Shown here piece by piece: positions 7,997 to 38,498 of a stretch of 64,000 nt of DNA. Origin of the DNA: a virus; IMG/VR virus record IMGVR_UViG_3300034069_000411. One strand, written 5' to 3'. How positions within the stretch are numbered: the stretch's first letter is position 1; each line of letters begins with the position of its first letter. The notes beneath the pieces are model-generated. The model was not told where the DNA came from. It did no database searches and saw only the letters and a list, made by a program, of their open reading frames with translations. Made by a program: the position numbers and the translations under genes.

Positions 7997-8567
7997 GCTC
8001 TAGCCACAGCACATATTTGCCCGTGGTAACAGCCGCCGCGCCGACCGCGCTGTACGCAAGCAACTGAAGCGGCACGGTCTTGCTGTCCCAGACGGCCCGG
8101 ACGTCGTTTACGACGCCGTTGAGCGTGATCGTCGGCGACCTACGCAGCACACCGATATGACACAGCCAGTTGAGGACGATCGTCGGGAACAGCGCGCAAA
8201 GGAACGGGATGACACTGATGGCATCGAGCAGGCGGGAGATCAGCAGGACGATCGACGTGGTGGCGTTGCTGACCTCATTCCAAACCAGATACGTCAGCAC
8301 ATCGCTCGTAGAGCCGATCAGCGCCGCCCATAGAAACGCGGTGATCACGGCGCGGTGATAGAACACGGGGTGGTTGCCCGGCAATTTGTCGACGCGCGCT
8401 TTGCTCGACATCCGCGCCAGCGTTGCCGCCGCCAGCAGCATGATCAGGAGGCGGGCGAACAGCGCCCATCCGAAGATCAGCGGGTTGTTATCGAAACTGG
8501 GCGGGTAAGGGCTGACGGCGAAGTCAACCGCCCGGCCGATCATGTCCCCGTGCTTGATCACCGTCAT
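7983..8567 (-). CDS. polytopic membrane protein, unknown function (194 aa)
   Basis: About 5-6 TM segments, visibly lower GC3, cargo position. Confidence 0.55.
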   Translation of the reverse strand: MTVIKHGDMIGRAVDFAVSPYPPSFDNNPLIFGWALFARLLIMLLAAATLARMSSKARVDKLPGNHPVFYHRAVITAFLWAALIGSTSDVLTYLVWNEVSNATTSIVLLISRLLDAISVIPFLCALFPTIVLNWLCHIGVLRRSPTITLNGVVNDVRAVWDSKTVPLQLLAYSAVGAAAVTTGKYVLWLEHAGR

Positions 8568-9073
8568 CGGCCGCTCCCGTCCTGATCACGCGCCACATCG
8601 CGAGCGCCTGATGCGTAATCCATGCCCCGGCGGGGAGCGCGAGAACGAAAGCTGCGGCAGACCACATCGTAAATCCCGGGAACCCCTACAAGCAGGCATT
8701 GCAGGAGGAAGATGATGTTCGAAGCCCACCCGAGCAGGATTGCCGCTGCCCGCTCCGTGACTGTGCCGCTGATCAGTGACCACGACAGCACGCCGGCAAC
8801 AGCTACGTCCGCGGCGGCAAGGATGACGATCACCGCCGACCAGGGTGACCGAGATCCGCGAAAGGCGATGCGCGCCGTGAAGGTCACGCACAGTCCCTGA
8901 CAGATTTCGAGGACAAGCCTCGAATCGAATGACGACCCGAAATAGGCCGCGCTGGTCACCAGCGAGCAGACGAGGAGCGCGAGACCGATGACCGCCTCGG
9001 CCCGATGCCAAGACGCCCGGGTGCACACGGCGGCGAACACCGCCCATGCGATCATCTGCGAAACATCGGTCAC
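8564..9073 (-). CDS. polytopic membrane protein, unknown function (169 aa)
   Basis: GTG start with GGGGAGG SD 7 nt upstream (refined from ORF 8564..9196). About 5 TM segments. Confidence 0.5.
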   Translation of the reverse strand: MTDVSQMIAWAVFAAVCTRASWHRAEAVIGLALLVCSLVTSAAYFGSSFDSRLVLEICQGLCVTFTARIAFRGSRSPWSAVIVILAAADVAVAGVLSWSLISGTVTERAAAILLGWASNIIFLLQCLLVGVPGIYDVVCRSFRSRAPRRGMDYASGARDVARDQDGSGR

Positions 9074-9092
9074 CGCGCTACCTCCCCTGCTG

Positions 9093-9311
9093 TTAGGCGT
9101 CGGACGGCTTAGGATTGCCACCGCGCGCCATGGTGCCCGCGGCTCCGATCTCTTCAAGGTCGCCCTCGTCGAGCCCCAACGCACCTGCCTGCTCATCGAG
9201 CCCGGCCTTCATGCTGGCGTGCAGGACATCGAGTTCGGCGCTCTTTCCTACCGCGGCATGGGCGGCCTGCAGCTTGCGGCTGATATCGATCACGCGGTCT
9301 TTAGCGTTCAT
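9093..9311 (-). CDS. hypothetical acidic protein (72 aa)
   Basis: ATG ORF with an AT-rich upstream region. Confidence 0.45.
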   Translation of the reverse strand: MNAKDRVIDISRKLQAAHAAVGKSAELDVLHASMKAGLDEQAGALGLDEGDLEEIGAAGTMARGGNPKPSDA

Positions 9312-9358
9312 TTTTCATCCAGTATTACGGGGTTGGTGAATTACAGGGATTACGCCGC

Positions 9359-9571
9359 TTACGCGGTTTTGAAAGCCACAATATCCTCGCCCGGATCGCT
9401 GGCGTTTCGTCCCCAATTAAACTTTTGAGCCGCGCCCTTTCGCCACACCGCCATACCGCCATCGGTCTTTCGGAGGATGATGATCACAATGGTTTGAGCG
9501 GGGACCGGGCAGCTTCCGCCTTCCCATGAGGTCCAAGGCGAGGACGCCTCGTCTATATTTTCTTCGGCCAT
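9359..9571 (-). CDS. hypothetical protein coupled to the tailspike (70 aa)
   Basis: TAATG overlap with the tailspike stop. Possible fibre chaperone by position only. Confidence 0.45.
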   Translation of the reverse strand: MAEENIDEASSPWTSWEGGSCPVPAQTIVIIILRKTDGGMAVWRKGAAQKFNWGRNASDPGEDIVAFKTA

Positions 9572-12324
9572 TACATTTTCTCCACACGAATTTTAAACGC
9601 CGCGCTTGCAAGATCGACGGTCCCGTTAGGGTTTCCCGTTGGGTTTGTAATGAAGAACTTCACAGTGTTTGCGGCGCTCACTCTCGCATGGATCGTCAGC
9701 CCCTTACTATCGCCGGGGTACGTCATACGAACGCTATCGCCGACGACCGCGCCGGTAACAGTAACCGTTTGCTCCGCGTCTACGGCCCCGGGCGCAAGGC
9801 TCGGCACGTCATAGGCTGCCGTCACCGCGTCGATGAAGAGCGCGCCCGACTTATACCATACAGCTTCTGTCGTGACGGTGGTCGACGTTTCGCTAGGCAT
9901 GACCGTGGCGACCGCGCACGAATAGCCAAGGCACTTGTAGAAGGCCGGGTTTGACGTGAACGCAAACTCGCCAATGGCATAGTCTTGCCCGGTGGGTGGC
10001 GTGTTGACGTACTGGTGGATCTTTCGCCCGTTGCCATCATTCCGAAGCACAAAGCCGTTTGGAAATACTGTTGTGACGTTGTTTAGGTTGTTGGCGGCGG
10101 TATTACGCACGACGGGGCTTGAGCGCCCGTAGCGGGAGGTATCGCCCCTAGCGGCGAAACCGATGGGACTTACCGAGTTTGCAAACGTGACGGTGAAGCC
10201 CCCGTTATTGGCCTTCAGAACAAAGCGCAGGTCTTCATTAAACTGCGAACCGGCTCTGTAAATCTCACCCGGGTTCGCTCTATCAGCGGTGTTGTAAGAA
10301 TAGACGTAGTCACCAAACGAAACTTTGGCAGCAGCGGTTTTCGTATAGGCAAACGCGCCCATGCCTACGTTTGCGGCAAAAGATCCGCCCGTCCCTGCCG
10401 AGACGGCCATCCACGGCGTGCGATCCGTATAGCCGGTATCGTTCTGGCCTCCGATGATCATCGACGGTGCGATTACATGGCCAACGCAAGTACCGCCCTC
10501 GATATAAAGATCAGTGAACACCGAGCGCGCGTTGCCGTTGTTGCTGAATACGCAATTCGAAGCGATGTACGTCCCCGTATTCGACCACAGCGGGGTCAGC
10601 CAATAGAAGGCGTAGTTATCGCCAACACCGAAGGCTGTGCCGGTCATGGTAAAGCTAAAGCCGGGCCCATTGAACTGCTGGTTGATAGTGCCCGTACCGA
10701 CCAGCGCGCCGCTGTTCTGGATAGTTACCGTAAACTCGGTCGTACTGGTCGCGGTGACGATATACGTGGCCCCAACATTAGCGGTCGCGTCGCGCGTCAG
10801 GTTTGAAAGGACTCCGTTACCGGTATTGGTGTGGCCGTTGAAGCTGTCCCTGTACCCATAGGTATAAGCGCCCATGTCATACCAGACATTCTCGTTTGTT
10901 CCGGGAACGGTCGAGGTTCCGATGCCATCAGTGATGCTGACAAGATCATAGGTTCGGTCGTTGTAGACGACACGACCGAGTTGGCGTCCGTTAGTTCCGT
11001 GGACCGCGCAGCCGGTCCAGCAGTTGCCCAGGAACGACACGTCCATGATGCCGCCGCAGCCCGAGCCAAGCACCTCTACCCCGACGCAATGGCCGGCATT
11101 TGCATCGATCCCGGCGACGTAGATGGCGTGAAGACCGGAATTCGCAATGCTGACGCGCGTGAGCTGGAAATCGTTCGCGTTGCCCGCGGTCAGGTTAGTA
11201 CCGAGATTGCCGTCCGTACTGCTGTTGGCAACGATGTTCAGATTGTTGCCCGGAAACCCATTTATGAACACGTCCTCAAAAGTTGCGCGGGCCCGCATCC
11301 AGACACCATGCTTCGTCCGATCAGTGCCCCCTAGGCTTTCGATAAGCATGTCCTTGTAAGACGAGCCATCGGCGGCGCGAACCGTACCCCGCGTAACAAC
11401 CTGCTCCATGTCAGTGTTGTTGCGATTGACGACGATGCCGTGAATATTCTGCGCGAATACCAAACTCGTATTTGCCGCGCCGGCCATCCCGCCCCCGGCC
11501 CCGCGGAAGTCCCACCGGGCGTGAAGATTGTGGGGACGAGTATGGTAGAACCGTCCCGGACCAACACTAACTTTGCGGCCACTAAATCCGTAAAGGATCA
11601 ACCCGATGGCCGGGTATGCATTGTTCAGCGCCTGCATCTCATCAAATGCGGGTGAGCAGTCGTTCGCCGCGGTTGCCGTGCCGGTATAGGGCACAGAGCC
11701 GAACGCCTCGTAAGCCCACTCCTTGTCCGCATACAGCGCCCAGCGGGTCACATTGCCGGCTTCATCCTTGGCCTTGAAGGACGAGCGCGGGTAGGCGGCA
11801 AGATAGGCGTCGTCGATGTCATTGCGGCGCTCATAGAACGCCCGACCATAACGGGCGGTCGTGTGAAAAGCAGTCATCACCATGGTAGTACCCGACGGGA
11901 TAACCTGCGGGTTCGCCCCGGCTCCGCTCGTTCGGACCGCGACGAATGACGGGATGGACATGATGTTGCCGCCCGGGTCGCCCTTGTAATAATTAGGGAG
12001 GCTCATGACCCGCTGCAGAGCGGTGTTCGCCCAAAACTTCGCGCCACGCGAGGTGCTGTCGGGCGCGCCGGAGATGGGCGCGTCGTCATTGTTGTTGGCG
12101 TACCGGCTGGCGAGCGCGGCGCTGTTCGTCGCCTTTTCCTCCTGGACGACGATCGCGGCGATCATGTTCGCCATCGTCTTGACCAGCCGCCCCAGCCGTG
12201 TCGTTACCGTGCCCGGGGGGTTGCCCGGATTGTTGCGGTCCGGCGCGCCGTTGACGACCTCCGCCAGATCATCCGCGTCGCGCTTTGCGTTTTCCATGTC
12301 CTCGGGGGTGATCAGGTCAGCCAT
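9571..12324 (-). CDS. tailspike/tail fibre with right-handed beta-helix-like central region (917 aa)
   Basis: Position after the J-like gene. N/G/T-rich repeats (NNLNIVANSS...GNANDFQLTRVSIANSGLHAIYVAG) typical of pectate-lyase-fold depolymerases. Confidence 0.7.
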   Translation of the reverse strand: MADLITPEDMENAKRDADDLAEVVNGAPDRNNPGNPPGTVTTRLGRLVKTMANMIAAIVVQEEKATNSAALASRYANNNDDAPISGAPDSTSRGAKFWANTALQRVMSLPNYYKGDPGGNIMSIPSFVAVRTSGAGANPQVIPSGTTMVMTAFHTTARYGRAFYERRNDIDDAYLAAYPRSSFKAKDEAGNVTRWALYADKEWAYEAFGSVPYTGTATAANDCSPAFDEMQALNNAYPAIGLILYGFSGRKVSVGPGRFYHTRPHNLHARWDFRGAGGGMAGAANTSLVFAQNIHGIVVNRNNTDMEQVVTRGTVRAADGSSYKDMLIESLGGTDRTKHGVWMRARATFEDVFINGFPGNNLNIVANSSTDGNLGTNLTAGNANDFQLTRVSIANSGLHAIYVAGIDANAGHCVGVEVLGSGCGGIMDVSFLGNCWTGCAVHGTNGRQLGRVVYNDRTYDLVSITDGIGTSTVPGTNENVWYDMGAYTYGYRDSFNGHTNTGNGVLSNLTRDATANVGATYIVTATSTTEFTVTIQNSGALVGTGTINQQFNGPGFSFTMTGTAFGVGDNYAFYWLTPLWSNTGTYIASNCVFSNNGNARSVFTDLYIEGGTCVGHVIAPSMIIGGQNDTGYTDRTPWMAVSAGTGGSFAANVGMGAFAYTKTAAAKVSFGDYVYSYNTADRANPGEIYRAGSQFNEDLRFVLKANNGGFTVTFANSVSPIGFAARGDTSRYGRSSPVVRNTAANNLNNVTTVFPNGFVLRNDGNGRKIHQYVNTPPTGQDYAIGEFAFTSNPAFYKCLGYSCAVATVMPSETSTTVTTEAVWYKSGALFIDAVTAAYDVPSLAPGAVDAEQTVTVTGAVVGDSVRMTYPGDSKGLTIHARVSAANTVKFFITNPTGNPNGTVDLASAAFKIRVEKM

Positions 12325-12382
12325 CTGTCGCTCCTATGTCTCTGCCCGGGCTATATCGGCAAAGGCATAGACGCGACAGGGC

Positions 12383-15300
12383 CTAGCGGCTGGCCATGTA
12401 GACGACGCGGACCTCGGTGTCGGTCAGGGCACGGCGGTAGAGCCTCACGTCGTCGAACCGGCCGATCAGCCCGGACAGCACGGCGAGATTGCTAAGCAAG
12501 CCGCGCGCGATGCCGGACGCCCGGCCAATGCGCCTGCCGTCGGCATACAGCGTCATTGTGCCGTCCGGGGCATAGCTGACCGCGACGTGGTGCCACTCGG
12601 CCGCGGGGGGCATCGGGGCCGCGACTTGAACAGACCCGTGACCGGCGACGAGATTGCCGGCACCGTCATACCCGAACCGCTCCGATGCTGAGCCCCCACC
12701 GATAATGTCGCCGGCCGCGCCGGCCGCCGGCTTGACCCACGCCATCTTCGTGTAACCGACGGGCGCGATCAGATTGACGACGCTGACACCCGCGCCCCCG
12801 GCGGTGGCCGAGTAGACGAAACCGCGCGAGCCGGCCTCCTCAATGGTGGAGGCCCCGCCGATTAGCGCGGCTGACTGCGCGCGGACGCTTTCGTCTATGA
12901 CGTCGCCGTTCGTAAAGGGCAGCCAGAGCGTCAGCTGGTCGTGCTGATAATACAGGAATGTATAATTCACCGCCCGCACCGTCTCGGTGAAGTCGCTGTT
13001 CGGCTCTCGCTCACTGACAATAAACGCGCGCGATTGCACGTCCTGCTCGGGGGCGATCGAGTAGATCGTTCGCACCCCGGCATTCGGGTCAGTGATCAGC
13101 GGCAGACGCGGCAGAGCGGACAGGCTGACCCGGTTCGGGTCGGCGCTCTCGCCCGCCGGTGGCTGCCACGCCGTCACGCCGATAGCCTGCACCGTCGCGT
13201 CGGGCAGCTGGACGAACATCGTGTAATCGCGATCGGGGTCGAGATCGACCTGGTCGGTGAGCGTCAGCACTGTTCCGTCCTGCCCCTTCACCTGCCCGGA
13301 TAGATGATCGGGGCGGGTCATATCGGTGATCAGCACCCGCTCCTGCGGTAGAACTAGAGCCGCTTCCTCTGTCGCCTCGAGTTCGACGGACACGTTCTGG
13401 TACCGCATCCTGTTCCACGCGCGCTGAGCGTGCCAGTAGCCGAGGGTGCCGGTGCCGATGCCCGGTAGCTCGACATTCCGCGGGCTGGTCGGGGTGTAGC
13501 CGGTTGGCAACGTGATAGTCAGCTTCGCGCCGTCCCGGGGCACCGTATAGGCCAGTTCGACGCCATCCTGATCATCGAGGATCCCGAAGCGCACGGTGCG
13601 GGTCTGGCTATCCGGCAAGACGTTGCGATGATTGAACAGCAACGCGGGGTCCTCGGTGGCCCGCTCAAACGCCACGCGGATGAGGCTGCCCTTGCGGTAG
13701 GCCTGACAAAATACCGCCTGGGCGACGGTCTGAATGGTCTCCTCAAAGGACGTGTTGTCGTCGTCGAACGTGTAGCTGAACTCGCGCGCGAGGCTCGACC
13801 CGAAATACTCGGCTACCTCGTCGCTGACCGCGCGAAGCAGCGGCAGATCGATGTCGCTGACACCCCGGGCCCCGATGTACGGGTCGAGCGTCACGGCGGC
13901 CATGATGTCGGCGGCGTCGTCGCTTCCGATCTCCGCGCTTAGCGTGCCATCGGCGAGGATTCGCGGGACACGACGCCTCGCGCGGAGGTTCAGCTTGCGC
14001 TCTTTTTGTGATGTCGCGCCGCTGGTCGCATACGTCTTCGACAGCACCGTCGTGACGTTGCCGAAGTGCTGCCTGTCGACGAGCGCGCCGCCATAGGCGT
14101 CTCTCCATTTCACGTCGTCGACCAGCGTGCCGTCGTAGTCGAGATCGGTGGGCGTGGTACGCATGGACCGCAGCTTGCAGGGCCCGGTGAAAGTAGGGAT
14201 CCCGTCCAGCGTCAATCCGACCAACTCTTTGTCATCGGCGCTCCCGATCAGCGTGCCGGCGAAGGTCTCCGCTGGGCCGGTGGCGTTCCCGTTGCTGTCA
14301 ACCGGGGTTAGCTCAAGCACGATGCCGACGCGGAGCGCGCCCTGCTTTCCCTTCTTGTTGATCGAGTAGAGACCGGAGAGCGCGACGTAATTTGTGATCA
14401 CCCGGTCGAGGTCGTCGAGATTGACCGTGAACGGGCCGACCCATCGCTCACCCGACGTTGACAGGCTCGGGCTGCCGTAGGCCGTCCGCCCGTCCGGAAG
14501 GCCCTGCAGATTGAGCCACGCCGCATTGACGTTGGACGGGTTGCTAAGGGTGATCGCTTTCGCCTCGACGGCGAGCGCAACGTATGTACCGGCGAGATTG
14601 AGCGACGAGGTCGGCGTAGGCACCGAGAATTGAACCGTGCGGTAGCCGGTGCGATCACTGTCCAGTTCGTCGAGTTTGTCCCAATCGGTGTTGATGTCAC
14701 CCGGGTTCGTCAGGGTCACGGTCCGGTCCGACCCGCTGATCGCGGTGATCGGGTAGCCCCCGGATAGATCAACATAGATGGTCGACGAGATCCCGTTGCT
14801 TTCCGCCCAGCCGGCGTTGCTGACGGTCAGGAACTGGCCCGCCGCAAACACCGTCGTCGGGTCAAAGTTTTCGAAGCGGATCACCCCGCCGAACTCAAAC
14901 CGCGCGGATACCATGACGGTGGTAGATCCGACCGCGCCGCTGTTACTGAAATCGGCACCGCCGATCGTCAGATCGTCACCGGCGTCGAATAGCTCGGTGA
15001 AGTCAATCTTGCTGCTCTTTGTCTCGATGCGGTCGGGATAGACAAACCGGATGTCGTCGTCGCCGCGCGCATTGTTTGCGTTGGGCGGGCGCAGCAGCTG
15101 ACCGTTGACGCCGGTGACCGAAACGATCGACAGCACCGGCGCGCCGATCTCGCTGCCGATGCGCAGCTGCGGCGCGCCAAACCCGGGCGCTGTAAAGGGC
15201 GCGTAGAACTCGACGGCGGATCCAGCGATAGAGGCGATCAGGCTGTCGCCGTCCCTGACGTCCGACAGATCGAACGCGCCGCGGCCGACGCACATCAGCG

Positions 15301-29953: not shown

Positions 29954-30495
29954 CAGTCACGGTCCTCGGCGAGCCAGCCATCGCGGCGATAGTCAGCATA
30001 GCGGCCCTCGTAGGGGCGGCACCCGTCCGAGGCACCGCTGACATACGCGCCGGAGTTCGTGCCGTCATCGTCAGCGCCCGGCGGGCAGAGGAGCCCGGCC
30101 CCGAGCAGCATCTTCCACAGCGCCGACGGGATCGGGGGCCCGCCCTCGACCGCGGCGAAGAACTCGACCTGCGCCGATCCGGCCTTGGCGATCTTCACGT
30201 TGCTGTTGCCGCTGGCGTCAGCGAACAGCTTAGGCTTGGTGAGCAGATCACAGGCCAGCATGGCGGTCACCTCCTGCACGACGGCGGGCTGCTCCAGCGC
30301 GGCCGGATCCGGCGCGGTACCGCACCACGGGAGGGTCATCATCATGCGGGTCGCCGACACGATGCCCCGCCCATGTGCGTCGGCCTGTTTCAAAGCCCAG
30401 AGCGTTGCGCGGCTGACATCGCCGGCAAGGTACCGGGTGGCGTTCTCGATGGTCGTCAGCGCGTCGAACTCGAGTTGCCCGATCATAACCTTCAT
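29953..30495 (-). CDS. hypothetical head-module protein (180 aa)
   Basis: ATGA overlap with the portal stop. Confidence 0.55.
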   Translation of the reverse strand: MKVMIGQLEFDALTTIENATRYLAGDVSRATLWALKQADAHGRGIVSATRMMMTLPWCGTAPDPAALEQPAVVQEVTAMLACDLLTKPKLFADASGNSNVKIAKAGSAQVEFFAAVEGGPPIPSALWKMLLGAGLLCPPGADDDGTNSGAYVSGASDGCRPYEGRYADYRRDGWLAEDRD

Positions 30496-32087
30496 CGACG
30501 TGCCCTCCGCTTCGCCATTTTCGTTCGTGACCGTAGGACCTTCGTGATCCGCCGGGCGTCAGCGTTGCCCTCGACACCGTCCGCGGGATCCGGCGCGGTC
30601 CCGCTGTTGCGCCCCGGGTTCAGCGACAGATCCATTTCGTCGACCCGCTCGGGCGGGCGTGATAGGCCCCAGATATCGTAGATCTCGCCGACGGCGGGAT
30701 CGTCAGGCATGACGGGCGCGCCGGCCTGCGCCAGTTTCGCCAGACCGTCCAGCAGCTGCTCGACGTCGCGGTCGCTGATCTCGTTCACGCCCATCTCGGG
30801 GCGCAGTTCCTCCGGCCACCCGTTCAGATCCGCGATCGGGGTCAGCACATCGCGGTCGATCACTTCGACCAGGTCGAGCAGGGTCGACGTGATCGTCAGG
30901 TAAAACGTGCCTACCTTTGACCGCGCCAGCGCGAGAGAGCCCGACCCGTCGGCACCCAGCAGCAGATGCTCGACGCCGAGGACGCGGGCCAACTCCTGAT
31001 TCGTGCGGGTGATCGCGGCGGCGATGTCGGCGAAACTGCTGCTGTCGCCGGTGAGCAGTTCCAGCCCCCATTTCGGCACCGCGGACGGCGTCGTCGCTTT
31101 GTCGGTGCCCTGACCGATGAACGGATCCGACGGGAGCATGACGCCGGTTTTCTTGTTGCGGACGTGCTTGTCGATGAAGTCGCGCAGGGGCCGTAGCATC
31201 GCGGCGCGACGGCCCTCGGCCTTGGCGCGCTCCGGGGATCCTACCCCGCCGGCCGCCTCTACCTCGGCCTTCAATTCGCCGAGCGGCGCGCGCGCGATCG
31301 GGATCCCGCGCAGATCCGTGGTGAAGCCGATGTTCTCAAGCTCGAGCAGCTGACGTAGCCGTTCCGCGCTTTCGGCGAGGTGGCGGTAAAGCCCCATGCC
31401 CTCGGGGCTGTCGGTCAGGGTGTCGTCGACCGCGTAGACGATCTTCGCGCGGGGCAGGGGGACCTCGTTGAGGCCGGGCACCCGCTGCACCACCCCGAGG
31501 ACGGTGCCCGAGGCATCGCGCAGCCAGCGCGCGATCGAGCGTTGCGGCCGATGCTCGATGTCCTTGAGGCCGATCGACCCGTCCTCATTCCGCTTGGCGG
31601 TCCACTCCATGATGGAGAAGCCCTGCAGGCGGTACGCCGCGATCTTCTTGATGACCGACGACCAAGGCGTCGTCATGTCGAACAGCATGTCATAGGCGGC
31701 GTCGGCGTAGCCCTGGGCGATCGGGGCCTCGTTGTCGTTCAGGCCCTCGGGCGGGTTCACCGTCCAGACCGCGTTCGCGATGAGGTTGAGAAAGACGCGG
31801 ACGCCGGCGGAAACGATCGATACATCGCGGACCAGCCGGTCGTATTCGTCGAACCGGGCTGATCCGACCAGCGAGACGCGCGGATCGTTGTAGCTACCGG
31901 AGTAGCCCGACAGATCCGCCGCGGAATCGAGGCTCGACCCCAGCGTGTTGGTCGACCCGCCGTCGGCCTTCTGGATCTCGTCGCCGGTGCTGATCACGGC
32001 GTCGACCATGGGATCGCTGATGGCGTCGGATCGCGCGTCACCGCCGAACCAACTCCCCATGCGCTCGAAAATGCTGTCCTCGGCCAA
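30492..32087 (-). CDS. portal protein (531 aa)
   Basis: Size and position (first structural gene after the terminase, followed by MuF-like). TTG start with GGGAG SD. An ATG alternative exists at 32060. Confidence 0.65.
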   Translation of the reverse strand: MAEDSIFERMGSWFGGDARSDAISDPMVDAVISTGDEIQKADGGSTNTLGSSLDSAADLSGYSGSYNDPRVSLVGSARFDEYDRLVRDVSIVSAGVRVFLNLIANAVWTVNPPEGLNDNEAPIAQGYADAAYDMLFDMTTPWSSVIKKIAAYRLQGFSIMEWTAKRNEDGSIGLKDIEHRPQRSIARWLRDASGTVLGVVQRVPGLNEVPLPRAKIVYAVDDTLTDSPEGMGLYRHLAESAERLRQLLELENIGFTTDLRGIPIARAPLGELKAEVEAAGGVGSPERAKAEGRRAAMLRPLRDFIDKHVRNKKTGVMLPSDPFIGQGTDKATTPSAVPKWGLELLTGDSSSFADIAAAITRTNQELARVLGVEHLLLGADGSGSLALARSKVGTFYLTITSTLLDLVEVIDRDVLTPIADLNGWPEELRPEMGVNEISDRDVEQLLDGLAKLAQAGAPVMPDDPAVGEIYDIWGLSRPPERVDEMDLSLNPGRNSGTAPDPADGVEGNADARRITKVLRSRTKMAKRRARR

Positions 32088-32228
32088 CGCCCGGCTCCCT
32101 GTGCTGCTCGGGGTGGTCTTATCGCAGGGGCGGGGCGGGGGATAGTCGGCGGCGTGGGCCTCGAACCCTACGGGGCCGCATCAGCCCTATCACCTGCCCG
32201 TCGTGCGCTTCGGGACGCCGCCTCGATG

Positions 32229-32302
32229 TTGCGGGGACAGGATTCGAACCTGTGACCTCCAGCGCATGAAGCTGGCGAGCTACCGGGCTGCTCCACCCCA
32301 CG
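32229..32302 (-). tRNA. tRNA-Met (anticodon CAT), initiator-like acceptor/D arm with non-initiator anticodon arm
   Basis: Hand-folded cloverleaf. C1 opposite A72, A11:U24, anticodon stem CCAGC/GCTGG, loop TTCATGC, T arm ACAGG-TTCGAAT-CCTGT. No encoded CCA. Confidence 0.85.
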
Positions 32303-32319
32303 GGGGCTGGATGGCAAAC

Positions 32320-32347
32320 GGCCCGCCCTCGGTCAAGAGGACGGGCC
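32320..32347 (-). terminator. conserved bulged-A hairpin (family copy 2)
   Basis: GGCCCGCCCTC-ggtcaa-GAGGACGGGCC. The minus-strand read is followed by GTTTGCC. Lies 17 nt upstream of the tRNA 5' end. Confidence 0.45.
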
Positions 32348-32642
32348 GTCAGTATCGCACCGCCAATTCGGGCGACGGTGCCGTGTGAGCCGGTCGTTAC
32401 CCCGGCGATGTGTTTCCCGTTGGTCCCGAGGGACTTTCAGAGCGGAGCGGCCACCTACCTGCCTAAAGCCCCCGGCTGATCTTTATCGGCCCCGGGGGAG
32501 CCTAGCCCGTCTCCGGAATATCCGGGCTGTCACACGGCGGTCCCTGCTACCGAGGGGCCGACCAACCTACCCCTGCCGGCGCGTCCGCCGCGTGATCCCG
32601 GTGTTCCTACCGGGGCCGCCTCTGGCGAGGCGTCGGACCCGG
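32320..32642 (-). ncRNA. candidate structured ncRNA or long structured tRNA leader (~300 nt)
   Basis: Bounded by a promoter-like motif and a hairpin. Many local helices and a 9-bp long-range pairing. No credible ORF. Confidence 0.35.
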
Positions 32643-32648
32643 GAACGG

Positions 32649-32677
32649 CGTTGCTCCCCACCGTCCCGATTCGCAAG
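32649..32677 (-). promoter_or_regulatory. promoter-like motif CTTGCGA-N-GGGGAGCAACG (minus-strand copy)
   Basis: Same CTTGC-N13-GGGGAGCAAC spacing as 968-996 and 3011-3039. Confidence 0.4.
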
Positions 32678-32690
32678 CTGAAACGTAAAC

Positions 32691-32719
32691 GGCCCGCCCC
32701 CTGTGCAGAGGGACGGGCC
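32691..32719 (-). terminator. conserved bulged-A hairpin (family copy 3)
   Basis: GGCCCGCCCCC-loop-GGGACGGGCC. The minus-strand read is followed by GTTTACGTTT. Downstream of gene 32798..33055. Confidence 0.45.
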
Positions 32720-32797
32720 GGCCAGCCGGGGGCTCAAGATACCCCGACCTACTTCCACCGCGTGCGGGCCTAACACCCGGGCGCGATGGCTATCTGG

Positions 32798-33055
32798 TTA
32801 TCGCTTGCGATCCGACGAGTAGCGCGGGACGCCGGCTTCGTGCCGGAGGCCGTTCTGGATGCCGCGGGGAAGTGCGTTGCCGTCGATCCGGATGGTCAGG
32901 CCGAACGTGTCGGTCGCGAGGCGCGTCGGTTCCGGGCTGAACAGGGCGGCGCAGTCGCGCATGAACGCCCCGGCGCGTGCGATCGTGGATGCGAAGGCGG
33001 CGTAGGCCGAGAGCGCGGGGGCGATGATCAGGGCGAATAGCAGGCTGCGACGCAT
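32798..33055 (-). CDS. small secreted protein (85 aa)
   Basis: AGGAGA SD 5 nt before the ATG. Signal peptide MRRSLLFALIIAPALSAYA. Lies between the terminase and portal genes. Confidence 0.55.
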   Translation of the reverse strand: MRRSLLFALIIAPALSAYAAFASTIARAGAFMRDCAALFSPEPTRLATDTFGLTIRIDGNALPRGIQNGLRHEAGVPRYSSDRKR

Positions 33056-33116: not shown

Positions 33117-34781
33117 TCAAGCCGCGCCCCACGGGTCGTCGTCATAGCCGGCCTCGGCCATCGCATCGGCCAGCACCTGCTCATCGCTGCCCGGCTCGAC
33201 GACCTCGGGCCCGGCGTTGACCGTCACCTCGGCCATGTCGATGATCTCGCCATAGGCGCGGCTGCTCGCGTCGATCTGATCCTTGAAGGCACCCGCGGGG
33301 AACGTCCGCATTTCCTCGACATAGTCGTGGTTCCACGCACCCTTCACCAGCCGCACCATCCCGAGGCCCACCTGTGAGGCGAACGGCTCGGCGCGACCGA
33401 TCTTGTCGAGGCGGCCCTCGGTCGTGATCCGGAGATTGAACTTGCCGAGGTGTTCGGCGAGGTCGTGCTTCTGAACTTTGCCGGCCGAGGCGGGATCTTG
33501 CGGCAGCGACTGCAGGGTGCGCGGGTCGATATCGAAATCGGCCTGGGCGACCGCCTTGATGTTGGTGCGCAGCTCATCCGGGCCCCAGCGGTCACGGCGG
33601 ACATCGGCGATGTAGATCAGGCCGTTGACCCGCTTCATTTTGACGCCGGCCGTGAAGGCTGACCGGCGGTCCTTCGAGGCGGCAAGATCCCAGCCGCGGA
33701 CCCATGACCCGCCGCTCGGCGCGAAGTCGACGTATCCGATCTGGCCGACCTTGAACATGCCGCCCTCGCGCGGGGCCGGGCGCTGCAGGTACTGACCGTT
33801 GTACGCATACTCGCCGATCTTTTTCAGCTGCTCGATCGCGGCCGGGGGCACGCGGACCGGGTCCATCGGCTCGCCCATGTAAGAGCGCGGGTCGGTCCAG
33901 TCGGTCTTGCCGCCCGCCCCGTCGTCGACCTTGAGCGGCGTGGTGCAGCGCCGGTCCGGTTCGAACTCCATCGGGATCATCAGGTGGACGAACCCGAACT
34001 CGCGCGCGAGCAGCACGCCGGTCAGATCCTTCTCATGCAGGCGCTGCATGACGATGACGATCGCGGACGTCTCCCAGTCGTTCGTTCGGTTCAGGCCGCC
34101 CTCGATGAAGGCCTGCACCGCGCCGTCGCGCTGTACCTCTGATTCCGCGCCCTTGAGGTTGTGCGGATCGTCGACGATCAGGCGGTCGCCGCGCTTGCCG
34201 GTCACGCCGTAGAAGCTGACGCCGAGGCGGGTGCCGGTGTCGTGATTGCCGAACGACAGCTTGCCCGCCGTCTTCATCCTGACCTCGGGCCACAGCGACT
34301 GGAACCATTCGGACCGGACCACGTCGAGCGTCTTGCCGGTGTCGCGCTTCACGTTGCCCAGATCGAACGACGTCGTGACATAACGGAGGTGGCGTCGGCC
34401 GAACGGGCCCCATTCCCATGCCTGCCACAGGACGGTGACGATCGTCGATTTCGACGAGCCCGGGGGGACGTTGATGATCAGGCGGGGGTGCAACTGGCCG
34501 CGGCTGATCGCCTCCAGATGATCGCACATCGCCTGCATGTGCCAGTTCCACCGCAGGGTAGTGCCCGGCTCGATGATCTTCCACGCGTACCGGACGAACC
34601 CGGCGAAGGTCTGGCATTCGGCGCGGACCCGGTCAGCGTCGCGCTCGACCTCGTCCATCATCGCTTCGTGCTGTCGCCGCGCTATCTCGCGCTTGTAGGC
34701 CGCAACCGACAGCGGCAGTTCGTTGCGGGGCGTCCAGCCGGTCGCGACCGGCGAGTCGTCAAGGCTCGCCAGTGATGTCAT
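33117..34781 (-). CDS. terL: terminase large subunit (554 aa)
   Basis: Walker A VPPGSSKST, Walker B RLIVDDPH, C-terminal nuclease-type region. Synteny with TerS and the portal. Confidence 0.9.
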   Translation of the reverse strand: MTSLASLDDSPVATGWTPRNELPLSVAAYKREIARRQHEAMMDEVERDADRVRAECQTFAGFVRYAWKIIEPGTTLRWNWHMQAMCDHLEAISRGQLHPRLIINVPPGSSKSTIVTVLWQAWEWGPFGRRHLRYVTTSFDLGNVKRDTGKTLDVVRSEWFQSLWPEVRMKTAGKLSFGNHDTGTRLGVSFYGVTGKRGDRLIVDDPHNLKGAESEVQRDGAVQAFIEGGLNRTNDWETSAIVIVMQRLHEKDLTGVLLAREFGFVHLMIPMEFEPDRRCTTPLKVDDGAGGKTDWTDPRSYMGEPMDPVRVPPAAIEQLKKIGEYAYNGQYLQRPAPREGGMFKVGQIGYVDFAPSGGSWVRGWDLAASKDRRSAFTAGVKMKRVNGLIYIADVRRDRWGPDELRTNIKAVAQADFDIDPRTLQSLPQDPASAGKVQKHDLAEHLGKFNLRITTEGRLDKIGRAEPFASQVGLGMVRLVKGAWNHDYVEEMRTFPAGAFKDQIDASSRAYGEIIDMAEVTVNAGPEVVEPGSDEQVLADAMAEAGYDDDPWGAA

Positions 34782-35388: not shown

Positions 35389-35826
35389 TTATTCGGGAAG
35401 GTGACGGGCCACTTCGGCGAGGGTTGCGGCGTCCGGTTTCCAGAAGAGCGGCGCTACGGTGCCCCGGCAGGGGATGAAAGGCAGCGCGATCGGGTTGCGC
35501 AGGACCAGCGCGCGCGGCCCCATCCACCACGGACTCGTGCTTTCGGTAACGGCGTCGACGATCTCGACCGCGCCGACGATGCCGCCGCGTTTCAGGTCAT
35601 CGAAATGGGGCCGCCCGCCGTGCCGCTTGAAACCGGTCGCGTTCATCGCGTGGCCCATGAACTCGATCGCGGTGTCGTATTCCTCGCGGGTCATACCGGC
35701 GGACGCGTGAATAAGGGTCAGGCCGCGGTGGCTGAACAGCGACTTGCGGTTCTCCAGGTCTTTGCCGTCGTGGATGATCGCCCAAGCCCAAGGCTGGCGG
35801 ACGGAGAGGGCAAGGAGCGAGGCCAT
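35389..35826 (-). CDS. ASCH domain protein (145 aa)
   Basis: N-terminal LSVRQPWAWAIIHDGKDLENR...LTLIHAS matches the ASCH consensus as I recall it. Confidence 0.75.
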   Translation of the reverse strand: MASLLALSVRQPWAWAIIHDGKDLENRKSLFSHRGLTLIHASAGMTREEYDTAIEFMGHAMNATGFKRHGGRPHFDDLKRGGIVGAVEIVDAVTESTSPWWMGPRALVLRNPIALPFIPCRGTVAPLFWKPDAATLAEVARHLPE

Positions 35827-35834
35827 GTCGCCGC

Positions 35835-36500
35835 CTACTCCCCGTCACGGCGGGTGACAATCGTGAACCGCTCCGCGATCCGGTCGGCCCCCGCGGTCAG
35901 CTGCGGCAGGTCAGGGCGGTCGGCCGGGGGGCGATCCCAAGACGGCTCCCATGTCGCGCAGGCCTCGTCCTGCGGTACGCGGACCAGCCGCCCGGCGTCG
36001 AGGTCGGCGAGGACAGAGACGATCAGCCGCACCCCCATCGGGAACAGCGCCTCGCGCCACAGATCCGAGGCGCGCGTGCCCGGTCGGATCATCACCCAGT
36101 CGGCCGCCGCGATCGGACCGCCATCGACCCGGGGTGACAGCCAATAGATCGACCCGCCGGTGACCGGGTCGCCCATGTGGCACGCCCACTTCACGGCGTC
36201 CCGGCCGCGGTGGCGTGGTAGCAGTGACGGGTGGTACCCGATGCCGCCCAGCAGCGTGCGCGACAGGGCGCGGTCGCTGACGATGACGTGAGCGTGTGCG
36301 CAGACGATCAGGTCGAGCCCCTCGGGCAATTCGTCGGCGGTGAGGCGGGCCGCGCTGACCGGGATGCCGAGACGGCGGGCCTCCCAGTCGAGGCGGTCGT
36401 CGATCGGCGCGAACACGGCGGCCACATCGTGCCCGGCCTCTACGATCGCGCGCAGCGCCGCGGCCCCGAAACTCCGCTGTCCAACCAGAGCAACCCTCAT
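35835..36500 (-). CDS. formyltransferase, Fmt/PurN-like catalytic domain only (221 aa)
   Basis: Start refined to the ATG in the ATGA overlap (ORF 35835..36857). MRVALVGQ, HPSLLPRHRG, PQDEACATW linker. No Fmt C-terminal domain. Confidence 0.8.
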   Translation of the reverse strand: MRVALVGQRSFGAAALRAIVEAGHDVAAVFAPIDDRLDWEARRLGIPVSAARLTADELPEGLDLIVCAHAHVIVSDRALSRTLLGGIGYHPSLLPRHRGRDAVKWACHMGDPVTGGSIYWLSPRVDGGPIAAADWVMIRPGTRASDLWREALFPMGVRLIVSVLADLDAGRLVRVPQDEACATWEPSWDRPPADRPDLPQLTAGADRIAERFTIVTRRDGE

Positions 36501-37687
36501 GCCGCCGCCTTCTCCAATGCTTTGCGGGCGGCCCATGCCTCCCCGCGATATTTGAACCCCTGCACGGCGCGGAAGTGCCCGCCGTACCCGGCAACGCCGG
36601 ACTCGAAATTGCCCTTTTTCTCGGTCTGTTTCCGCTCCGACTTCTTGAGCGACGCGATCGACTTCGACCTCGACGACCCGTGGAGGGACGCGCTGATCTG
36701 TTCCCACCTGGGATCGCGGCGCAGCGCGGCGCATAGGCCGGGGTGGCTGGTGTGGAAGAAGCCGCACTTCACGCGGTCGCCAAACTGGCCGAGGCCGGTC
36801 ACCTCGCGCTCCATGACCCAGTTTAGGAACTTCATCCCCACGCCGGCCCCCTGCCACTCGGGCATGATCACCATGCGGCAGCCGCGAATCCCGCCGGTGT
36901 TCAGGCGGGGCGCGATCCCGAGGTGGGCGACCGGCTCGCCGTCGACGAACGCGACGAAATACCGGCAGGCCACCATGCGGGGCAGTTTCAGATAGTGATG
37001 CGGCTCAAAGAGGTCCCAGTAGGAGCCGTCGACCTGCCGAATCTCAAGTTCGATAGGAGGTCTTCGCCTAAGACGCCTCCCTGCGGCATCCCGCTCGAAC
37101 ACGCCTGTCGACGTGTCAAAAATCCAATCGGGCTCGAGCCAGTCGAGGACGTCGTAGTGGCATGACAGCAGCACCGCCTTACCCGGGGTGCGCCGCCACG
37201 CCTTTTGGAACGCGAGCGCGCCCACCTTCGCGATCTGGCGGTCGACGACGGACGTGAACTCGTCGATCACGACCGCGGCCGGCTCCTCGGCGACGATCCG
37301 CGCCAGTTCGGCCCGGAACTTCTCGCCGTTCGACAGCACCCCATAGGGCCGCAGCCATGACGGGACAGAGCCCAGCCCGACGGCTGACAGAGCGGCGGTA
37401 ACGGAATTGAAGTCGCCCCCGGGCGCGATGGCGTCGACGATCGGGGCGTCGTCAGGCCAGACCCCGCCGGTCCACAGCGCCTCTTCGCCGAGGATGCGAC
37501 GACCTAGCGAGGTTTTGCCGGATCCAGACGGGCCGACGACGACGCCGACTTTCCAGTCATCGTCATCGATCGCTAGATCGGCGTCCAGGTCGAACGCCTG
37601 ACCGGACTCGGCATTGAACAGGGATTGCACCCGAGCAGCGCGATAGCTCTCGTAGTGCGGGCATCGGTTTCGGATCTCGATTTTCAT
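36497..37687 (-). CDS. ABC-type ATPase fused to a GNAT acetyltransferase domain (396 aa)
   Basis: Start refined (GGAGG SD, MKIEIRN). GPSGSGKT, LSNGEKFR, VVIDEF, then the GNAT motif RMVIMPEWQGAGVGMKF. Confidence 0.7.
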   Translation of the reverse strand: MKIEIRNRCPHYESYRAARVQSLFNAESGQAFDLDADLAIDDDDWKVGVVVGPSGSGKTSLGRRILGEEALWTGGVWPDDAPIVDAIAPGGDFNSVTAALSAVGLGSVPSWLRPYGVLSNGEKFRAELARIVAEEPAAVVIDEFTSVVDRQIAKVGALAFQKAWRRTPGKAVLLSCHYDVLDWLEPDWIFDTSTGVFERDAAGRRLRRRPPIELEIRQVDGSYWDLFEPHHYLKLPRMVACRYFVAFVDGEPVAHLGIAPRLNTGGIRGCRMVIMPEWQGAGVGMKFLNWVMEREVTGLGQFGDRVKCGFFHTSHPGLCAALRRDPRWEQISASLHGSSRSKSIASLKKSERKQTEKKGNFESGVAGYGGHFRAVQGFKYRGEAWAARKALEKAAA

Positions 37688-37722
37688 GCGGCCTCCGGGG
37701 GCCGCCATACGCCAGATGCAAA

Positions 37723-37760
37723 TGACCCGCCAGTCCGGGAGGGGGTGGACTGGCGGGTCA
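37723..37760 (-). terminator. strong hairpin between the parB-like and ATPase-GNAT genes (terminator/attenuator candidate)
   Basis: GACCCGCCAGTCC-N10-GGACTGGCGGGTC, a perfect 13-bp stem. The minus-strand read is followed by ATTTGCATC. Confidence 0.5.
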
Positions 37761-37820
37761 CCTTGGGCCGCACCGCGCGAAAGGGGGGGACGCGTCGGGC
37801 ACCCCCACCATATCACCGGA

Positions 37821-38498
37821 TCAGACGACGACAACCTTGACGTTTTCGGCCCCGTAGATCTCGCGCAGGCTGTTGAAGCAGGACTCCTGCTCGCCCTCTG
37901 ACGCGCACTTCACGATGACGGCAAACTGGTCGACGTGCTGATAGTCGCTGTCGTTTTCGGTACCGCCGGTCTTGCGGGTAGAGCCGGTGCCGGCATCACC
38001 GCCGCCCATGTCGACGAGAGCGTCAGCGCCGAAGCCCAGCGGGGCCATGTCGAAGTCGACCGCGGCGAGGGCGTCGAGCTCTCCGGTCAGGATCTCGATG
38101 TCCCAGCCGGCATTCTCGGCGATCCGGTTGTCGGCGAGCGCGTAGGCGCGCCGCTCCTCATCGGTCCATCCCTCGCACCCGATGACGGGTACAGCCCCGT
38201 CGGGGAGCAGCGTGCCGCCCCTGTCCTCGCCCGGGGCCATGTAGATCCGGCCGCCCTCGCCGTAGATCACCTGCGCAGCTGCGCGCCGGCCGTGCCCGGC
38301 CCTGATCAGGTCATCGGCGAGGATCGGGTTCGTCCAGCCGAACCGGCGGATCGACGCAACGATCTCGGCGATCTGCTCGGGGCTGTGCGTGCGGGCGTTG
38401 CGGGGATCCGGCGTCAGGTCCTCGACCTGGCGTAGCTGGATGGCGGGCTTCCGAGCGGCGGGTTTCGTCATGGGCGCAATCGGTAGACCCAGTGCCAC
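37821..38498 (-). CDS. ParB/Srx-like N-terminal domain protein (225 aa)
   Basis: DPRNARTHSPEQIAEIVASIRRFGWTNPIL...GHGRRAAA. GTG start, with an ATG alternative at 38471. Confidence 0.8.
   Translation of the reverse strand: MALGLPIAPMTKPAARKPAIQLRQVEDLTPDPRNARTHSPEQIAEIVASIRRFGWTNPILADDLIRAGHGRRAAAQVIYGEGGRIYMAPGEDRGGTLLPDGAVPVIGCEGWTDEERRAYALADNRIAENAGWDIEILTGELDALAAVDFDMAPLGFGADALVDMGGGDAGTGSTRKTGGTENDSDYQHVDQFAVIVKCASEGEQESCFNSLREIYGAENVKVVVV

Follow-up and report, generated by a model that had tools for sequence, protein, structure and literature searches.

Does a phage-borne tRNA(CAU) that combines an initiator-type body with a non-canonical anticodon arm serve as a translation initiator, and, if so, why was its anticodon arm remodelled? 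The gene that raises this question lies at 32229-32302 on the minus strand of the window, by which we mean the whole 64,000-nucleotide stretch of the IMG/VR record IMGVR_UViG_3300034069_000411 that was analysed, and its 74 nt have the same sequence as quoted in the first-pass annotation. The window represents a tailed-phage genome with 67% GC, and exact protein matches assign it to a 67-kb JGI metagenome contig and to a 41-kb Logan contig. In addition to the genes listed below, it encodes a MuF-like head protein, a major head protein, a tape measure, a J-like tail protein, ERF, SSB, RusA and several DNA methyltransferases. At positions 8000-12400 the GC content falls to 0.58-0.61, compared with about 0.67 elsewhere; a 917-aa ORF at 9571-12324 (minus strand), which adjoins the J-like tail protein and has no PHROG match, may encode an exchanged receptor-binding protein. 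The features surrounding the tRNA are the following:

30492..32087, minus strand: Mu-type portal protein (context)
32147..32222, minus strand: tRNA-like remnant, degenerate; its 7-bp acceptor stem is perfect, and one segment resembles a T arm
32229..32302, minus strand: initiator-type tRNA-Met(CAU), based on ARAGORN, Rfam, conservation in the related contig L471 and covariation
32306..32349, minus strand: GC-rich hairpin with an 11-bp stem, loop UUGACC and a short U tail
32677..32720, minus strand: intrinsic-terminator-like hairpin, the upstream copy of the repeat, 3' of orf85
32798..33055, minus strand: 85-aa ORF (orf85), weakly homologous to ZS04_15 and R6L gp99
33117..34781, minus strand: terminase large subunit, TerL (context)

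The tRNA had been described as sitting in a non-coding island between the terminase and portal genes. Its position between the two holds, but the interval also contains the conserved 85-aa ORF, two hairpins and a tRNA-like remnant. The hairpins are paralogous, being copies of a 35-nt direct repeat (77% identity) with short T tails. The tRNA-proximal one (32306-32349) ends 16 nt upstream of the tRNA and shows compensatory changes in L471, a closely related JGI contig of 68,949 bp whose proteins fall into the same 90% protein clusters as those of the window. At the DNA level it reads TTGACC-17 nt-CATCCA-5 nt-tRNA +1, a geometry conserved in L471, and the element is possibly a promoter, or else a terminator or processing signal. 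The remnant (76 nt, with the T-arm-like GGGTTCGAGGCCC) directly follows the tRNA-Met and is called by ARAGORN at a relaxed threshold only; Rfam, run on the TerL-portal gap at a relaxed threshold, returned besides the tRNA-Met only sub-threshold chance matches and none for the remnant. In L471, its slot is taken by an intact tRNA-Trp(CCA) (L471:3865-3938).

The tRNA itself is confidently called. ARAGORN reports a single tRNA in the 64-kb window, a tRNA-Met(CAT) at 32228-32302, and Rfam gives a full-length match to RF00005 (tRNA) with 57 bits (cutoff 29; E=1e-9), the sole Rfam family at gathering threshold in the window. Both programs agree with the minus-strand cloverleaf proposed at first pass, and all four stems are perfect. 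By direct reading of the sequence, the acceptor has an unpaired C1xA72 (likewise in L471), G2:C71, U3.G70 and A73, and the D stem has A11:U24, so that the earlier assignment of an initiator-type acceptor and D arm stands. The near identity of the first ~26 nt to E. coli tRNA-fMet, noted at first pass, is also correct: of the 5' 27 nt, all but two match the metZWV initiator (25/27 identical), and metZWV, between mltA and amiC, is the best E. coli match for the whole tRNA (78.4% over 74 nt). Of the general initiator features, the cloverleaf with CAU anticodon is present, as are the formylation determinants G2:C71 and A73, with U.G instead of C:G at 3:70. The three consecutive G:C pairs at 29-31:39-41 are absent, since the anticodon stem (C27-G43, C28-G42, A29-U41, G30-C40, C31-G39) reads au/GC/cg at these positions and keeps only G30:C40. 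Absent too is the canonical loop CUCAUAA (C32-U33-CAU-A37-A38), replaced by U32 U33 C A U G37 C38 (UUCAUGC); the lack of the three pairs and the presence of G37 had both been read correctly before. Where an elongator tRNA-Met has a Watson-Crick 1:72 pair, Y11:R24 and A37, the window tRNA has C1xA72, A11:U24 and G37. The gene encodes no CCA. Its T loop, UUCGAAU, is as reported, but the diagnostic value attached to it as elongator-like is lost, as both T-loop forms occur among the 50 distinct UUCAUGC tRNAs described below (36 versus 14). We rejected this feature as significant given that it is precisely this base that distinguishes the T loops of the near-identical phages R6L and ZS04. In thermodynamic folding the minimum free energy structure differs from the cloverleaf (z = -1.05), which is uninformative for a GC-rich, unmodified tRNA.

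Comparison with L471 indicates that the gene is maintained. Its tRNA (L471:3782-3856) is identical at 72 of 74 positions, and the only two changes, C27 to U and G43 to A, amount to one compensatory pair in the anticodon stem (C27:G43 to U27:A43), the loop UUCAUGC being unchanged. Identity between the window and L471 is 97.3% for the tRNA, 80.9% for the 47 nt immediately 5' of it, 57.7% from the tRNA to the portal start and 51.7% between the two hairpins, i.e., 52-81% across the non-coding flanks. In an alignment of ten lineage and reference sequences, 94.8% of the cells in the cloverleaf are paired, compared with 77.4% in shuffles and 41-52% in slid controls, and 12 of the 21 cloverleaf pairs show changes on both sides. 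Judged from these comparisons, the tRNA-Met is under purifying selection. Given its conservation, the compensatory pair and the covariation of the cloverleaf, a decaying pseudogene is unlikely.

A megablast search of the 2.5-kb region against GenBank phages gave no match. The nearest cultured phages are the Erythrobacter phages ZS04 and vB_EliS_R6L (TerL 63%, portal 71%), and the host of the window phage is thus probably an alpha-proteobacterium. Both phages have an initiator-type tRNA-Met between TerL and portal that is unannotated in GenBank (ZS04, L002:7841-7917, PV416405; R6L, L003:4045-4121, KY006853). In five IMG/VR relatives (L243-L247, TerL 57-63%) an initiator-type tRNA-Met lies just downstream of TerL, the portal being visible within the locus in L247 only. 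These seven tRNAs resemble that of the window in the initiator-type body, in G30:C40, which is invariant in 10/10 aligned sequences, and in the variability of 29:41 and 31:39, where G:C, C:G, A:U, U:A and even U.U occur. They differ from it by an encoded CCA and by the loop, which is CUCAUAA in all seven. Their 1:72 position is C1xA72 or a weak U1:A72, and ZS04, R6L and L247 have C11:G24 where the window has A11:U24. The stem of L244 (CCAG-U / U-CUGG) presents the CCAG/CUGG of the window on a canonical loop, which indicates that the non-initiator stem was largely inherited within the lineage; relative to L244, the arm of the window tRNA is changed at positions 31, 32, 37, 38 and 39. The earlier picture of a chimera with a non-initiator anticodon arm is therefore right in that the arm is non-canonical, but its label as non-initiator needs revision: the lineage was already without the three G:C pairs and retains G30:C40, and UUCAUGC itself recurs on phage initiator-type tRNAs. 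As the gene order is TerL-orf85-tRNA-portal in the window and TerL-tRNA-orf-portal in ZS04 and R6L, strict orthology with the tRNAs of these two phages is uncertain. The tRNA island downstream of TerL varies among relatives (L244:4951-5183; L245:4791-5535; L471:3782-3938), with sets of Met-Thr-Gly, Met+Pro, Met+Trp, or none, and in L249 the gap is without a tRNA. On the basis of these arrangements, the gap downstream of TerL is a tRNA hot spot.

The loop of the window tRNA recurs widely in phages. Scanning IMG/VR for TTCATGC-N13-GGTTCRAATCC identified UUCAUGC in at least 120 contigs, representing 50 distinct tRNAs including the window's own. Among the matches listed, 42/50 lack a Watson-Crick pair at 1:72 (41 with unpaired bases in various combinations and one with a G·U wobble), A73 is found in 48/50, G2:C71 in 45/50, C3:G70 in 46/50 and A11:U24 in 40/50. 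The stems of these listed matches are mostly xxGGG/CCCxx or xxAGG/CCUxx, and their loci span a GC content of 0.29-0.68, most of them in tRNA-rich phages. The C31:G39 sub-class, to which the window tRNA belongs, comprises 13 IMG/VR contigs, seven of which fall within the first 120 matches, and a rough extrapolation from this proportion suggests roughly 200 UUCAUGC carriers in IMG/VR overall. A complete metagenome scan for C31-UUCAUGC-G39 recovered 30 loci only, a rarity that argues against an abundant cellular lineage with the same arm. The 16 distinct sequences of this metagenome subset divide into about eight initiator-type and about eight elongator-type (G1:C72, Y11:R24) tRNAs. In the sequences sampled, UUCAUGC is preferentially, though not exclusively, found on initiator bodies.

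In a second sample, drawn from phage CAU tRNAs whose stems are GGG/CCC, with no constraint on positions 32, 37 and 38, the loops among the matches listed were CUCAUAA (83, about 69%), UUCAUAC (15), CUCAUAU (7), UUCAUAA (4), AUCAUAA (3), UUCAUGC (3) and a few others. Variation among these listed matches is limited to positions 32, 37 and 38, and G37 is seen only together with U32. The exact 17-nt arm of the window tRNA (CCAGC-UUCAUGC-GCUGG) is also present in L001 (2842-2918), L463 and L464 on bodies that are otherwise different: L001 has G1:C72 and an A2xA71 mismatch, and L464 carries it on an initiator-type body with C1xC72. Such sharing may reflect arm exchange or convergence. When the arm is left out of the comparison, 19 of 63 variant tRNAs have a canonical-loop tRNA as their nearest neighbour, which hints that the variant arms arose repeatedly or by arm exchange. 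BLAST searches of cultured phages with two abundant variant-loop tRNAs as queries gave no UUCAUGC example. Unannotated initiator-like tRNAs with other loops were seen in Aeromonas phage ZPAH1 (L475, 188056-188123, CUCAUUA) and Clavibacter phage CN1A (L476, 50111-50183, CUCAUAU), and the tRNA of Sinorhizobium phage phiLM21 combines U29:A41 in the stem with a canonical loop. A full-text literature search (UUCAUGC, phage initiator tRNA, G37) retrieved no account in which initiator tRNAs encoded by phages are treated as a class. By its sequence, the window tRNA is thus a member of a recurrent phage class for which the search found no description.

With regard to function, we consider it likely that the gene encodes a functional phage initiator tRNA. 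For charging, host MetRS would recognise the CAU anticodon and A73; formylation by host Fmt and avoidance of EF-Tu would be made possible by the unpaired C1xA72 together with G2:C71 and A73; and the retained G30:C40 would allow passage through the P-site/IF3 checkpoint. Judging by E. coli identity studies, charging by MetRS may be less efficient with U32 and G37, and U3.G70 may weaken formylation. In comparison with bacterial tRNA-fMet (E. coli metZWV/metY), the window tRNA has the same CAU, C1xA72, G2:C71, A73, A11:U24 and G30:C40; it differs in being phage-borne, in the lack of CCA, and in having UUCAUGC, au/GC/cg and U3.G70, where the E. coli initiator has CUCAUAA, GC/GC/GC and C3:G70. Mutagenesis in E. 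coli showed that, among the three G:C pairs, G30:C40 is the essential one; initiators of the au/GC/GC type occur naturally in alpha-proteobacteria, and E. coli can grow on a cg/GC/cg mutant, although this works poorly (PMC5389676). Since G30:C40 is the essential pair and relaxed variants function, the au/GC/cg stem of the window tRNA would be compatible with an initiator role. More generally, initiators relaxed at the three pairs, whether natural (alpha-proteobacteria, mycoplasmas) or engineered (cg/GC/cg, au/GC/gu; Shetty et al. 2017, PMC5389676), keep G30:C40 and change the first and/or third pair. The natural ones keep the purine:pyrimidine orientation, whereas the window tRNA has a reversed third pair, C31:G39, together with an altered loop.

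As to why the arm was remodelled, we lean towards the view that the tRNA is an expressed, functional phage initiator that would resist a host anticodon-arm nuclease and so sustain phage initiation. CUCAUAA is the loop normally found in each of the three CAU tRNA species. In the proposed scheme, the phage would supply an initiator tRNA unrecognised by such a nuclease, so that phage translation initiation could continue while host tRNA-fMet is depleted. VapC of Shigella and Salmonella cuts tRNA-fMet at A38|C39 (PMC4105405), and a Leptospira VapC cleaves initiator tRNA in the anticodon loop (PMC5175351). The alpha-proteobacterium Bosea has a VapC that cleaves tRNA-fMet, the anticodon stem-loop of which is identical to that of E. 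coli, and growth is restored in part by additional tRNA-fMet (PMC8522696). According to the literature, phage defence involves many other nucleases that target anticodon loops. It has been suggested that phage tRNAs evade anticodon nucleases through mutations in the loop; the same paper, however, reported a general avoidance of tRNA-fMet genes by phages (PMC10264068). In the window tRNA, the remodelled loop (U32, G37, C38) and the relaxed stem (A29:U41/G30:C40/C31:G39) would surround the bond that VapC cuts, and the differences at 31, 32, 37, 38 and 39, scored against the canonical loop and the relatives rather than the host tRNA, flank A38|C39. It is this bracketing of the VapC site by the changes relative to L244 that favours a nuclease-insensitive initiator. 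Similar cases, for which such an escape has been either proposed or shown, are the tRNAs of mycobacteriophage C1 versus VapC (PMC10264068), the T5 tRNA-Lys versus PARIS (PMC11464382) and the T5 tRNA-Tyr versus Retron-Eco7 (PMC11555353), all of them phage-encoded copies of tRNAs with differences in the anticodon arm near the cleavage site. Unlike in those systems, the target here would be the initiator, and the cognate nuclease is putative.

Nevertheless, UUCAUGC is found on elongator-type CAU tRNAs as well (about 8/16 distinct sequences of the C31:G39 subset). Given that the VapCs of Shigella and Bosea spare elongator tRNA-Met, a VapC-specific account is incomplete, and the elongator-type carriers imply that whatever exerts the selection may recognise the CAU loop generally rather than the initiator specifically. 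That the arm was remodelled to escape a nuclease is plausible, though tentative. A broader idea, less likely than not, is that phages of many host groups carry dedicated initiator tRNAs, with loops rewritten at 32, 37 and 38 (UUCAUGC, UUCAUAC and others), as a counter-defence against toxins or nucleases that cut tRNA-fMet, the window tRNA being an extreme member.

Several other explanations were weighed against an escape initiator. One is that of a specialised initiator that alters start-site choice, in which G37, C38 and U32 would extend codon-anticodon pairing or alter IF3 proofreading in favour of phage mRNAs. Positions 32, 37 and 38 are those proposed to face mRNA positions -1/-2 and +5, and UUCAUGC recurs on initiator-type bodies; we nonetheless regard this as unlikely, since the 64 predicted starts of the window, which are crude start calls, show no GC-AUG enrichment (-2 G in 9/64, -1 C in 19/64), and the loop is spread across phages of 0.29-0.68 GC and is carried by elongator-type tRNAs too. 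That same presence on both initiator-type and elongator-type CAU tRNAs, which points to a reader of the CAU loop itself, is what speaks for a non-translational decoy or inhibitor binding a host factor (a toxin, nuclease or sensor), or for a modification-independent loop common to phage CAU tRNAs. We hold either to be improbable: a decoy would have no need of the aminoacylation and formylation determinants and of G30:C40, all of which are conserved, and, as A37 is unmodified in bacterial initiators, escape from t6A dependence fails to explain the initiator cases.

A redundant tRNA copy that drifts neutrally or decays as a functionless relic would account for the missing CCA, U3.G70, the loss of the three G:C pairs and the non-canonical loop, and it would fit with the adjoining degenerate remnant and the varying tRNA content of the gap among relatives. 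However, 97% identity next to flanks of 52-81%, the compensatory stem change in L471, four perfect stems with a covariance model score of 57 bits, and the same 7-nt loop in at least 50 distinct phage tRNAs, which is not expected from drift, make this reading quite improbable.

It is very unlikely that the gene encodes an elongator tRNA-Met or a lysidine-dependent tRNA-Ile2 for codon compensation. The CAU anticodon is common to all three species, and ARAGORN, put forward at first pass as a check, says simply Met and leaves the CAU type undistinguished. The initiator marks C1xA72 and A11:U24 argue against both, as does the fact that the tRNAs downstream of TerL in the relatives are canonical initiator-type. 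The elements used by E. coli TilS and IleRS are C4:G69, C5:G68, A37 and A38, whereas the window tRNA has G4:C69, G5:C68, G37 and C38. Moreover, AUA amounts to only 1.2 per 1000 codons in the window. The tRNA-Ile2 option, which the first-pass annotation had offered as an alternative, is thus disfavoured by the acceptor, the loop and the rarity of AUA.

Finally, the probability is negligible that the gene is a leftover attP site or other trace of integration by a tRNA-targeting integrase, for although anticodon stem-loops are classic crossover sites and the 17-nt arm is identical in unrelated contigs, the tRNA is complete, lies amid the packaging/head module, and no integrase was found among the about 55 window ORFs scanned. 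The prior judgement that no integrase lies nearby and that a functional phage tRNA is likelier than an att remnant is in line with the full-length, conserved gene. When genome contigs were searched for the 17-nt arm (at least 120 matches), no tRNA occurred among the first 120 listed, and these matches are due to chance.

The phage also encodes two enzymes that had been considered as possible partners of the tRNA:

35835-36500, minus strand: formyltransferase, N-domain only (Formyl_trans_N)
36497-37834, minus strand: ATPase-GNAT (phrog_11143), an ABC-type ATPase with a generic GNAT domain

They belong to a stretch of four minus-strand genes (35389-38498) coding for a ParB-like nuclease-domain protein, the ATPase-GNAT, the formyltransferase and a phrog_3193 protein. 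The formyltransferase is not a Met-tRNA formyltransferase (Fmt): its score with TIGR00460 is 48 bits (cutoff 201.5), with the ArnA and PurN models scoring similarly, and only Formyl_trans_N was found in it, the C-terminal tRNA-binding domain of Fmt being absent. Its product of 221 aa (with the gene call taken from L471) compares with 315 Fmt model positions, and about 120 codons into the window ORF there is an in-frame start, M-R-V-A-L-V-G. In the ATPase-GNAT, none of the TmcA helicase, GNAT_acetyltr_2 or tRNA-binding domains were detected. Homologues of these two genes lie upstream of TerL in loci without a tRNA-Met (L272, L288, L316), those of the ATPase-GNAT in L272 and L288. The link of either protein to the tRNA was consequently rejected on domain content and lack of co-occurrence. 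The ParB-like nuclease domain, adjacent in the window, is fused to a large DNA methyltransferase in ZS04. From its gene content, the four-gene cluster is probably a DNA or nucleotide-modification module and not a set of tRNA partners.

Few RNA elements of bacteria are as conserved as the anticodon arm of the initiator tRNA, which is the target of VapC toxins. If the proposed function is true, the window tRNA would show that, of the rule of three G:C pairs, G30:C40 alone is needed by a working initiator. If escape from a nuclease is true as well, the idea of phage tRNAs as a counter-defence would extend to translation initiation, and cleavage of the initiator tRNA would be a relevant anti-phage strategy. 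The tRNAs of this class would also offer natural variants for probing what MetRS, Fmt, IF3 and the 30S P site need from the anticodon arm.
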